DNA of 64,000 nucleotides from an uncultured Planctomycetaceae bacterium. Its GTDB lineage: Bacteria; Planctomycetota; Phycisphaerae; SM23-33. Position numbers and translations under genes: made by a program. The stretch spans positions 4,912 to 68,911 of the forward strand of contig CAZIAZ010000002.1 of assembly GCA_964536835.1 (NCBI GenBank). The letters are read 5' to 3'. This document shows positions 2,945-45,924 of the stretch, in pieces (positions within the stretch are counted from its first letter, which is position 1; each line of letters begins with the position of its first letter). The notes beneath the pieces were generated by a model, which worked only from the letters and a program-made list of their open reading frames with translations, was not told the DNA's origin and made no database searches.

Positions 2945-3592
2945 TCAAGATTTGTCGCAAAGAGGTTTTTGGCCTATAAACCGCCAGGCTCTGATAGGAT
3001 TGCCACGCATCGATTTTATATCTTCAGTCCACTCATCGCAGAAATTGAAAGCCGCCACGCGCTCATGAAGCGTCGCCATGCTCATGTGCCGCAATATGGC
3101 GCCGTCTGGCAATTCGAAGACGCCATATATCGAATATCGTTCGGCATATTTCTCATAACGCTCCACGCATCGGGTATGCGACTGTATCGGAAAATCGCTT
3201 ATGAAAACATATCCGCCCGGCCGTAGAATACGGATTATTTCATCCATAAGTCTACGTTGGCCGTCATCTGTCGGAATGCACGTCAGTACCGAAAAAAGCA
3301 GTGCCCCGTCAACAGATTCGTCATCAAGCGGAATCCTGCCATGCTCCATAAGCTCCAGATTCAACCCGCAACGACGGCCTTTATTCACCATCGCCGCAGA
3401 AATATCAAAACCTTTTACATTGATATACCCGTTATTGGCAAGTTCATCGCAAACGCGGCCATATCCGCAGCCGACGTCGACTATTACGCTCTGGTGAGCG
3501 AGATATTTTTCAAGTATGCCCAAATCAAGCGGCGCGGTGAATTCCTTGGCAATCTGCGAATCCCAGTAGGAACTCTGCGCGTCGATATTCAT
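2945..3592 (-). CDS. class I SAM-dependent methyltransferase
   Basis: Motif I is VVDVGCGYGRVCDELA. The start is set to the internal ATG (MNIDAQS...), which gives a 4-bp ATGA overlap with the upstream oxidoreductase gene. The longer ORF runs to 3700. Confidence 0.65.
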   Translation of the reverse strand: MNIDAQSSYWDSQIAKEFTAPLDLGILEKYLAHQSVIVDVGCGYGRVCDELANNGYINVKGFDISAAMVNKGRRCGLNLELMEHGRIPLDDESVDGALLFSVLTCIPTDDGQRRLMDEIIRILRPGGYVFISDFPIQSHTRCVERYEKYAERYSIYGVFELPDGAILRHMSMATLHERVAAFNFCDEWTEDIKSMRGNPIRAWRFIGQKPLCDKS

Positions 3593-21594: not shown

Positions 21595-21805
21595 ATGTTT
21601 GTCTCCAATTTTTTAATATGTCCTTCGTAATTCTACGGTCTTTCAAAAAAAAGACCCGCAGATGAAAGCATCCGCCATCAGACGGACAGGCAATAACCTT
21701 AAAACTAAATACAACCTATGACCCGTAGTAATTCATTTATCGTGTATTATTACGACCTGTCGTATTTTATGTAAACCGAAAATACAAATCCGTAAAATTT
21801 TGTTA

Positions 21806-36102: not shown

Positions 36103-36382
36103 TTTCAGCCTTTCCTTGCTTCATTAATTCAAAATTGAAGACGCAGAGTTTAACTCTCCACCCAATTTTTCGCAAGCCATTAGGCAGGATTTTCTTAATC
36201 AACTGATGGAATATTTGCCGAAAATGGTATAATAACTACCCAAATACTTTATCCGAAGGAGTTTTACGGTTTTAGCGCAAGCCTGCTGGGCTGCCGCTAA
36301 AGAAAGATTCAGGCGTCAGCCTTTTTACGGGGCTGCAATGTGCCCTTGAAAAACCGTAAAATCATGAAGGACTTCTCATAAA

Positions 36383-38569: not shown

Positions 38570-38572
38570 TAT

Positions 38573-38741
38573 GACTGTACGCTATACAGGTACTTTTAAA
38601 AACTTTTTAACATGACCATTCTGAATATATAGGTTACTTTTAAAAATTTTTTAGAACGACCGTTCAGAATATATAGGTTACTTTTTAAAACTTTTTAATG
38701 CGACTGTTCAGAATATGCTATTTTAAAAATTTTGAAAAATT
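38573..38741. repeat. four imperfect tandem copies of a ~44-bp AT-rich unit (GACYRTTCWGAATATATAGGTTACTTTTAAAAAYTTTTTAA)
   Basis: Read directly: the unit starts near 38573, 38614, 38658 and 38702. The array lies between degP and the LysM lipoprotein gene. Confidence 0.7.
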
Positions 38742-38760
38742 AACGTGAAAGGATTTTTAT

Positions 38761-44516: not shown

Positions 44517-44975
44517 ATGGTATTGGCGTTGAAGGACAACTCGGCTCCGCTAGAATTGGTAGTTACCGGCGAGGTTGCCAGTTGGCTGCCGGCGCTGGAG
44601 CAGGTGGTAGGGCCGAATTGGCTCAAGACGCGGCGTGTGCGCAGCGGCCATGAATTGTTGGAGGTCGTCCGCCACGGCCGAGCCGACGCTGCCGTATTGG
44701 ACGACGAATGCGACTGGGACCTGGATGTGCTGCAAATGCTCCGGATGCTTCGCCAGCTTGACAGGTCGTTGCAGGTTGTGGTCGTTACACACCACACGGA
44801 AAGGCAGTGGATGGAAGCTGCGTTGAAGCTGGCGGCATACAGCGTTTTGACCAAGCCGCTGGGCTTTGAGCCGCTGGTACGACAGATTCACGGCATAATG
44901 CTCAAAATGCACAAGCAGCTTAACTCGCAGCCTACCGCAATCATGAAACTTGATGATTGGAATAAAAACTGGTAA
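44517..44975 (+). CDS. stand-alone atypical (pseudo-)receiver domain protein
   Basis: REC-like layout has a candidate phospho-Asp in VLDDECDWD, a VVVVT segment and a K in TKPLGFEPL. The N-terminal acidic pair is missing. Confidence 0.4.
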   Translation: MVLALKDNSAPLELVVTGEVASWLPALEQVVGPNWLKTRRVRSGHELLEVVRHGRADAAVLDDECDWDLDVLQMLRMLRQLDRSLQVVVVTHHTERQWMEAALKLAAYSVLTKPLGFEPLVRQIHGIMLKMHKQLNSQPTAIMKLDDWNKNW

Positions 44976-44981
44976 AAATTT

Positions 44982-45168
44982 GCCTGTCCGCCCGACGGCG
45001 GATGTTTTTTTTCTACGATTTTTGTTAAAAAAACGTAGGATTAAGACGGACATAATGAATCTCTACGGGTTAAAACCCGTAGCATCATAGTCATCAGGCT
45101 TTCGCCTGTCCGCCTCACGGCGGATACTTTCATCTACGGTTTAAAAACCGTAGAATTAAGACGGACAT
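44982..45168. repeat. two ~70-bp hairpin-rich direct repeats (gcctgtccgccNNacggcggat...ctacgNttt..aaaNcgtagRattaagacggacata) flanking a perfect hairpin (ctacgggttaaaacccgtag)
   Basis: Read directly. Each unit contains a GC stem (tccgcc/ggcgga) and an AT-rich stem (ctacg..cgtag). The unit ends are inverted (gtccg...cggac). Confidence 0.65.
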
Positions 45169-45182
45169 ATTAAAAAAACGCG

Positions 45183-45216
45183 TTGAAAAGGCAAAAGGAA
45201 ATAACATCGTTTTGAG
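45183..45216 (+). promoter_or_regulatory. possible heat-shock (sigma-32-like) promoter for groES (TTGAAA-N14-aaCATcgT)
   Basis: The -35 TTGAAA matches the sigma-32 consensus. The -10 is only a partial CCCCATNT match. SD gaggaga at 45214. Confidence 0.25.
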
Positions 45217-45226
45217 GAGACAGAAA

Positions 45227-45538
45227 ATGGCTAAAGCCAAATGCACGAAATGTAAAATTCGCCCCCTGGGTGACAAGGTCCTGGTAAAGCGTCTGGAGGC
45301 GGAATCCATCACAGCCGGCGGCATAGTCCTGCCCGATACCGCCAAGGAAAAACCCAAGCAGGGAACGGTTCTCGCCGTCGGCGAAGGCAGCCTGAACAAG
45401 GACGGCAGCCGTACCCCCCTTCAGGTCAAAACCGGCGATACTGTCCTGTTTACCAGCTACGCCGGAACTACCGTCAAAATCGACGGCGACGAACTCATGC
45501 TCATGGATGAGAGCGACATCCTGGCAATCATTGACTAA
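45227..45538 (+). CDS. groES: co-chaperonin GroES
   Basis: [44 protein letters not shown]. 103 aa. Confidence 0.9.
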
Positions 45539-45633
45539 ATAATTGTTAGGACAGCTTTCTGACTTGAGGATAGGATTCCTCTAGCCGCCACTCAAGCTGC
45601 CCATTTAGTTATCTCTTTTCAGGAGTATTAATT

Positions 45634-45924
45634 ATGGCAAAGGCAGCTGGAATTTTCATGGATGTAACAACGAGATGGGCGGAAAAGCTTCAAGTCGATA
45701 TGACGGTTCTCGAATGGGCATTCGACAATCTTAGACATAATGCATCTAACGAAGGATGTCATAATTTCCCATCAAGAGATGATGTAGCCTCTAATGACAT
45801 TTTCTTTAATGCAGTTCGCCGAATGTATGAAATAAGAACTGGCAGAGTGCTTGAAAAAAGTGAATATCCTATGCTCAGAAGAATGATTCTAAAAGTACAT
45901 AAACAAGGTAAAACCCCAAGATAA
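45634..45924 (+). CDS. hypothetical 96-aa protein in a low-GC insertion between groES and groEL
   Basis: Own SD (aggagt). The start context nearly duplicates that of groEL (aggagNattaNNNATGGCAAAG). GC is visibly lower than in both chaperonin genes. Confidence 0.35.
   Translation: MAKAAGIFMDVTTRWAEKLQVDMTVLEWAFDNLRHNASNEGCHNFPSRDDVASNDIFFNAVRRMYEIRTGRVLEKSEYPMLRRMILKVHKQGKTPR

Follow-up and report, generated by a model that had tools for sequence, protein, structure and literature searches.

The structured repeats that precede the chaperonin gene groES in this uncultured Phycisphaerae lineage are, with a probability that we put at roughly 80%, copies of a lineage-specific, non-autonomous dispersed repeat of a REP/BIME- or IS200/IS605-like kind that arrived by insertion. 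Among the observations behind this reading are that copies 93-100% identical to one another occupy multiple sites in the genome, and that the corresponding spacer of the nearest relatives holds none. Here, we describe the repeat unit, its distribution in the window (the whole stretch of 64,000 nucleotides that was analysed) and in sister metagenomes, and its possible effects at groES.

The groES spacer and the repeat unit

The groES (Cpn10) gene is located on the forward strand at 45227-45538, with its ATG at 45227, and is followed by a 96-aa open reading frame (ORF) and then by groEL. Directly 5' of it, at 44517-44975 on the same strand, lies an orphan gene for an atypical single-domain receiver, and the order receiver-groES-groEL is conserved in related Phycisphaerae. 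The protein encoded at 44517-44975 is identical to an NCBI/JGI entry, 'response regulator [Phycisphaerae bacterium]', and JGI metagenome 3300010352 contains it on a 160-kb contig. Further, the locus upstream of groES was assembled identically in six samples and is thus no assembly artefact. A single-domain receiver immediately 5' of groES-groEL was seen in at least eight Phycisphaerae relatives (P0002-P0027); the protein lacks the N-terminal acidic pair (VVTGE) while the Asp (AVLDDE), Thr and Lys positions are kept, and its role may be that of a chaperonin-operon partner particular to this lineage. The 96-aa ORF (45634-45924), which has no Pfam domain, is present in all strain-level contigs and in the relative L083, whose receiver is 88% identical, and is absent from the more distant L007 and L009.

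The spacer between the receiver gene and groES is 251 bp long and contains, as the earlier note had described, two direct repeats (44979-45059 and 45101-45174, with 83-88% identity when aligned piecewise), each including a GC stem (TCCGCC-N4-GGCGGA at 44987-45002 and 45109-45124) and an AT-rich CTACG...CGTAG hairpin (45014-45039 and 45134-45153), as well as a perfect hairpin, CTACGGGTTAAAACCCGTAG, between the two (45063-45082). The palindrome CTACGG..CCGTAG occurs three times within 90 bp upstream of groES. These repeats are far above chance expectation, with three matches to the stem motif in the window against 0.04 expected, and three matches to the 3' block of the repeat against 0.00 expected.

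Alignment of copies from this and other sites gave a repeat unit of about 123 bp with four hairpins, laid out as AGTGAATCT-CTACGGGTTAAAACCCGTAG-CATCATATTCAT-CAGGCTTTCGCCTG-TCCGCCTCACGGCGGA-TACTTTCAT-CTACGGTTTAAAAACCGTAG-AATTACGAAGGACATATTA(A)n. Its ends are conserved (5' AGTGAATCTCTACGG, 3' CCGTAGAATTACGAAGGACATATTA(A)n), ATATTA always ends the unit, and the interior features two near-identical 20-nt palindromes, each starting with CTAC and ending with GTAG, around a 51-nt spacer that holds two further GC-rich hairpins. The outer of the four hairpins, 0 and 2, are 88% identical; hairpin 0 starts 9 nt in from the 5' end, and about 20 nt separate hairpin 2 from the 3' end. In the groES spacer the two arms (45062-45082 and 45134-45154, 51 nt apart) are 81% complementary, and since each arm is itself palindromic they are direct repeats as well.

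From these alignments, and from a covariance model (CM) of the unit built from seven copies, we read the groES spacer as 1.6 copies of the unit arranged head-to-tail, one older and truncated at its 5' end (c1) and one complete (c2). Copy c1 (44979-45055, + strand; CM 43 bits, E 4e-8) begins 4 nt past the receiver stop codon, lacks the first ~48 nt of the unit and, by a hand count of roughly 15 differences in the alignments, matches the family consensus at about 80% of 75 nt. Copy c2 (45054-45176, + strand; CM 154 bits, E 7e-36) is a full 123-bp unit of a young subfamily and is 93-97% identical to copies on other contigs, with hairpin 0 at 45063-45082, hairpin A (CAGGC/GCCTG) at 45095-45108, GC hairpin 1 at 45109-45124, hairpin 2 at 45134-45153 and the tail AATTAAGACGGACATATTAAAAA at 45154-45176, all on the forward strand. 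The perfect hairpin, which had been taken for a separate element between the repeats, is therefore the first hairpin of the second unit (45054-45176). Similarly, the inverted gtccg/cggac pentamers that had been thought to bound each repeat are present as TGTCCG/CGGACA flanks in both c1 and c2, but they form no boundary of the family, all other members having GAAGGAC, and their pairing overlaps the GC stem such that the two structures are mutually exclusive. Both c1 and c2 carry ATTAAGACGG where every other copy has ATTACGAAGG, which suggests that the two neighbouring copies have undergone local gene conversion or duplication.

The unit is predicted to fold strongly, with -45.9 kcal/mol and z = -6.8 for the four hairpins of the sense strand. 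This fold, together with a strand-asymmetric excess of wobble pairs, would fit a multi-copy family of small RNA genes in which each unit is an independently transcribed structured RNA. In the divergent copies, counting by hand from the per-pair table gave 11 G.T and 3 A.C mispairs for the four hairpins with a Watson-Crick consensus, and a separate count over all 39 pairs of the model gave 24 G.T and 3 A.C; the excess is marginal (about p 0.06), with some cells resting on doubtful alignment, and is a weak hint that the sense strand is the functional one, either as RNA or as single-stranded DNA. However, the opposite strand folds equally well (-47.7 kcal/mol, z = -6.9), neither a promoter nor a terminator frames the unit, no sigma-70-like promoter was predicted inside it in the sense direction, and Rfam returned no credible match, whether the window was searched at the gathering threshold or the region at an E-value threshold. 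Derivatives that are truncated, tandem or reduced to a solo hairpin are, moreover, typical of repeat DNA and not of genes, and we regard independent small RNA genes as a very improbable explanation. Covariation is uninformative about selection on structure as the seven copies are too alike: no pair had changed on both sides, a count equal to that of shuffled controls. The hairpins, in which compensatory base-pair changes are absent, may be inherited without being selected.

Dispersal through the genome

Copies of the unit are found well beyond groES. Within the window, a full-length but older copy, c3 (21610-21737, - strand; about 70% identical, CM 116.5 bits), is located between nadA and a UDP-sugar pyrophosphorylase gene (Pfam UDPGP), ending ~16 nt before the ATG of the latter. 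The stretch 36246-36382 (+ strand), directly upstream of a PTS-EIIA/HTH gene (Pfam), is weakly indicated as a degenerate relic of the element by nhmmer (E 0.0014) and the CM (15.5 bits, E 0.27), its 3' half being the best kept (ACCGTAAAATCATGAAGGAC). The AAGGA of this stretch may now be the Shine-Dalgarno (SD) sequence of the PTS-EIIA/HTH gene. The 10 kb that precede the window on the source contig (L135) contain two full copies (L135:6018-6140 and L135:7655-7777, 2-4 kb before the window begins), which flank accA in antisense orientation to the neighbouring genes. The first of them adjoins a 42-nt solo-hairpin derivative (L135:5976-6017) comprising the 5' end, one hairpin and the 3' tail of the unit.

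A scan of metagenomes with a strict two-block pattern recovered eight true copies, confirmed by nhmmer, on other contigs from sister samples, the other 13 matches being due to chance. This pattern undercounts copies, as both full L135 copies have a common C-to-A change in the GC stem that falls within it. The contigs bearing copies correlate with the window at a tetranucleotide r of 0.94-0.975, as compared to 0.92-0.97 among pieces of the window itself, ~0.75 for related Phycisphaerae and 0.26-0.73 for the chance matches, and therefore belong to the same organism. Five of the eight sister-sample copies are situated at a contig end, as usually happens where a multi-copy repeat has interrupted the assembly. 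Overall, a contiguous sequence of 74 kb has four strong loci, and the ~130 kb of the organism that were covered have at least nine distinct sites. In the identity matrix the young subfamily stands at 93-100%, with L065 at ~84% and c3 at ~70%. Additionally, CM, nhmmer and end-motif scans revealed further degenerate or variant copies on sister contigs, among them L068:4409-4496, which has the same termini and a different interior. At L068:4409-4621, two variant elements are placed tail-to-tail around a bidirectional terminator-like hairpin (AAAAAATCCCG..CGGGATTTTTTT), and their A-tails merge into the A/T runs of the terminator, a hint that A/T tracts beside hairpins are preferred targets.

All copies are intergenic, and the genes beside them are functionally unrelated, including those for UDPGP, PTS-EIIA/HTH, DUF1844, a purine-nucleoside-phosphorylase-family protein (PNP), prepilin peptidase, DeoR, CbiM and accA. 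The unit lies in sense orientation just upstream of a gene in the case of the groES copies, c3 and L068, antisense to both flanking genes in the two L135 copies, and facing the 3' end of a convergent gene at L078 and L065, while at least four sites (L081, L074, L064 and L071) are between divergent genes, as are L081 and L074, or upstream of a divergent gene.

Three times a new copy directly adjoins the tail of a resident one, with junctions GGACATA|ATGAATC at groES, GGACAT|AGTGAATC in L135 and GACATATTAAAAA|AGTGAATC in L071. TA is found on both sides of the unit in five of nine copies and an A-run on the left in the other four, the left-flank 4-mers being CAAT, TTAT, ACAT (twice), CGAT, GCGT and A-runs. 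The three junctions suggest a preference for insertion into the element's own tail or into TA- or A-rich targets. No target duplication of fixed length could be established from the copy flanks, and no sufficiently similar empty site was present among the sequences. A search for terminal inverted repeats (TIRs) found none between the 5' end AGTGAATCTC and the 3' end GGACATATTA; the sole inverted similarity near the ends, AATCTCTACGG / CCGTAGAATT, is subterminal on the 3' side.

A scan with GCCTGTCCGNCNNANGGCGGAT of a genome collection in which the source species seems not to be represented gave 51 matches, all of them single chance matches in unrelated phyla, with none in Phycisphaerae and no full element by nhmmer, and three scans of viral contigs gave no true copy. 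Other intergenic repeats were observed alongside. A second family, an AT-rich tandem array of a 44-bp unit (38583-38716, in the spacer 38570-38760; 3.1 copies, 84% matches), sits between two + strand genes, and a similar array of 44-45 bp with ~8 copies, each bearing a small AACCGT..ACGGTT hairpin, is found in the 10 kb upstream of the window on the same contig (L135:7250-7600). The more distant Phycisphaerae contig L009 has its own unrelated palindromic repeat families, a GGGTGGCATGG-hairpin and CACAGGTT..AACCTGTG, which at 375-900, 2450-2780 and 3414-3590 occupy every intergenic region of a 6.4-kb locus, including the receiver-groES spacer. Hairpin repeats thus seem to be common in this group of Phycisphaerae.

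Relatives and the heat-shock reading

In the two closest relatives, L083 and L084, with receivers 88% and 87% identical, the receiver-groES spacers are only 72 and 86 bp long; the spacer is 147 bp in a relative with a 66% identical receiver, and 69 and 258 bp in more distant ones. A CM search of the spacers of both the closest and the more distant relatives detected no copy of the element. In L083 and L084 the stop codon of the receiver is followed by ~12 nt, TTGGAA, AAAAGG..TAAC.., TCGTTTTCAGGAGACA and the ATG, which aligns with 45184-45226 of the window (+ strand), a groES-proximal region, evidently ancestral, that comprises TTGAAA, AAAAGG, TAACAT, TCGTTTT and the SD sequence GAGGAG (45215-45220). 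The short spacer of the relatives has its counterpart in no more than the 47 nt that separate the element from the groES ATG, and because it aligns with the stretch downstream of the element, the repeat of ~195 bp sits between the receiver stop codon and this ancestral region. The TTGAAA (45184-45189), previously proposed as a sigma-32-like -35 box, is conserved as TTGRAA in L083 and L084; its distance from the aligned TAACAT-like '-10' is not constant among the window and these two relatives (13, 16 and 18 nt), which leaves the reading as a sigma-32 -35 element unsupported.

The earlier note had offered, as one of its explanations, a lineage-specific heat-shock element, that is, the operator of an unidentified repressor or an RNA thermometer in the groES leader standing in for CIRCE or HAIR. 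The position directly upstream of groES and the three CTACGG..CCGTAG palindromes in 90 bp speak for such an element, as does the missing CIRCE and HAIR, for the note was right that neither is present: at up to three mismatches the whole window had zero matches to CIRCE (TTAGCACTC-N9-GAGTGCTAA), which was also not seen by eye in the spacers of the relatives, and zero to HAIR (CTTGAGT-N7-ACTCAAG). Between groES and the 96-aa ORF, CTTGAGG-N20-ACTCAAG at 45562-45597 resembles HAIR half-sites, with a spacing of N20 instead of N7, and is probably a chance occurrence or a simple hairpin.

Against a heat-shock element, the unit is found beside at least eight unrelated genes in both orientations, and the note had itself counted occurrence at many unrelated intergenic sites as evidence for a generic repeat. 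The comparison of groES upstream regions, which the note had proposed, leads to the same outcome, since the closest relatives lack the element before groES, and as CIRCE and HAIR are also absent from these element-less relatives, nothing has been replaced. No Rfam thermometer family matches the unit. The groES SD is 40 nt downstream of the element, and in predicted folds of the leader with both copies its probability of being unpaired is 0.64, 0.68, 0.71 and 0.75 at 30, 37, 42 and 50 C, respectively, as compared to 0.74-0.79 at 30-50 C in folds without the element. Predicted SD accessibility is thus independent of both temperature and element, which makes no contact with the SD in these folds, and thermometer behaviour is not predicted. 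We consider a heat-shock operator or thermometer extremely improbable, whereas the REP-like alternative, which the note had also raised, is borne out in kind by the many unrelated intergenic sites at which the unit occurs.

Affinities, probable origin and possible effect on groES

The reading as a dispersed repeat can be placed among known systems. REPs, as defined by an unpaired GTAG/CGTC tag, REP doublets and the associated RAYT proteins are described in PMC3733652, as are REP dimers with spacers containing stem-loops, and the REPIN concept is covered in PMC3337134. The present family resembles these in having short palindromic units in many intergenic copies (20-nt palindromes at nine or more sites), in that each main palindrome ends in GTAG, in its doublet of palindromes around a structured spacer, similar to the REP dimers of PMC3733652, and in its singlet derivatives and arrays, G.T pairs in stems and restriction to a lineage. 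It differs in that the GTAG of hairpins 0 and 2 pairs with CTAC as part of a perfect palindrome and forms no unpaired end tag, in its greater length (123 bp) and conserved non-palindromic ends, and in stems that are AT-rich in the middle. Further, classical REPs are mainly downstream of genes, in convergent or co-directional pairs, whereas at least four sites here lie between or upstream of divergent genes, which speaks against the present reading, and no RAYT gene was seen in a weak search of ~120 kb of the organism.

Transposases of the IS200/IS605 type recognise secondary structures near the element ends (PMC6006769). The likeness of the unit to non-autonomous elements of this group (PATEs) consists of the absence of terminal inverted repeats and of a clear target duplication, of similar subterminal hairpins (8-9 and ~20 nt from the respective ends), and of the hint of strand specificity. 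For the bottom strand of IS608, a similar spacing of 10/19 nt is reported. In contrast to PATEs, no conserved target of 4-5 nt could be established on one flank, the four copies on the source contig have no orientation bias (three + and one -), and no TnpA, TnpB or IscB partner was found in the sequence searched.

A MITE would have terminal inverted repeats at its very ends, which the unit lacks. Pneumococcal BOX and Neisseria Correia elements are likewise about 100-150 bp long, modular, strongly folding and close to gene starts, and are in principle able to give neighbouring genes terminators, promoters or processing sites; Correia elements, however, combine terminal inverted repeats with a TA duplication, BOX elements consist of boxA/B/C modules, and neither has sequence similarity to the unit. 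The heat-shock systems CIRCE/HrcA, HAIR/HspR and ROSE/fourU are like the unit only in a position upstream of groES and in inverted repeats; the unit has no sequence match to them, is not chaperone-specific, does not occur in relatives and does not sequester the SD. We conclude that the repeat adds a new family to a well-known kind of element, in a phylum that has been little studied.

The family would have spread non-autonomously, with the subterminal hairpins recognised by a transposase acting in trans. The lack of terminal inverted repeats, the hairpins ending in GTAG and the slight excess of G.T over A.C on one strand would make a single-strand enzyme of the HUH/Y1 type the most likely one, either a REP-associated tyrosine transposase (RAYT) or an IS200/IS605-like transposase. 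A tblastn search of ~120 kb of the organism, using IS200-TnpA and the E. coli RAYT as approximate queries, gave no match better than E 0.2, which is a weak negative. At groES, we take c1 to have been inserted before c2, both of them landing between the receiver stop codon and a proximal region that was already in place.

One of the two groES copies may have acquired a local role. In c1, the GC stem forms a terminator-like hairpin identified by a terminator scan (44985-45012, + strand), with an 8-bp stem (TGTCCGCC/GGCGGATG) of which five pairs are GC, a 4-nt loop and a T8 run, located 10 nt past the receiver stop, and c1 is the only copy with all of these features of an intrinsic terminator. 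The T8 run is unique to c1, other copies having ACTTTCAT at the same place, and the change from ACTTTCAT to GTTTTTTTT right after the GC stem involved four substitutions and one insertion within 9 nt. It is plausible that the GC stem and T8 act as an intrinsic terminator of the receiver gene, for which they are a candidate by sequence, so that the note's terminator option is tenable for c1 only; the promoter of groES would then lie in the conserved proximal region, inside the element or beyond it. The relatives lack such a hairpin and have only ~70-85 bp between the two genes, and it may therefore be through the insertion that groESL transcription became independent of the receiver gene. The tail GGACATATTAAAA was considered as a general promoter motif and discarded, being found outside the element only once in a relative and in another repeat.

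More broadly, copies that are or once were mobile could be kept as cis-acting modules, serving as terminators or insulators, as mRNA-stabilising hairpins in 5' or intercistronic positions, or as carriers of outward promoters; at groES, such a module would uncouple groESL from the receiver gene and set the stability of the groES mRNA. The T8 gained by c1 beside its GC stem is consistent with this, as is the end of the unit lying ~16-50 nt before a co-directional start codon in three cases (c3, L068 and groES), a gap with little or no room for a promoter, so that the unit must be either transcribed or promoter-supplying. The G.T over A.C mispairs on the sense strand agree with it too, and REP/BIME sequences are known to affect termination and mRNA stability according to PMC3733652. 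However, orientation is inconsistent, with two same-contig copies antisense to both neighbours and two copies facing the 3' end of a convergent gene, and the unit has neither a predicted sigma-70-like promoter in the sense direction nor covariation. The 93-100% identity of the young copies, moreover, fits recent spread better than long-term selection, and general retention of the unit as a regulatory module appears unlikely. We would be equally cautious about a bolder version of the insertion reading, a rather doubtful one in our view, in which the family represents a new type of hairpin-ended mobile element without terminal inverted repeats in Planctomycetota, moved by a single-strand HUH enzyme, inserting preferentially into resident tails or TA/A-tracts and forming head-to-tail arrays, with one groES copy exapted as a terminator that uncouples groESL from the receiver.

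For the regulation of groES, a dispersed repeat implies no surprising biology. For annotation, it warns against taking structured repeats in front of a stress operon for a regulatory element, in a lineage that is uncultured, until the genome has been checked for further copies. The repeat also matters for assembly, as it breaks metagenome assemblies of this organism, with five of the eight sister-sample copies at contig ends. Finally, the family offers a usable case for studying the spread of small repeats in Planctomycetota and their occasional donation of a terminator to a neighbouring gene.
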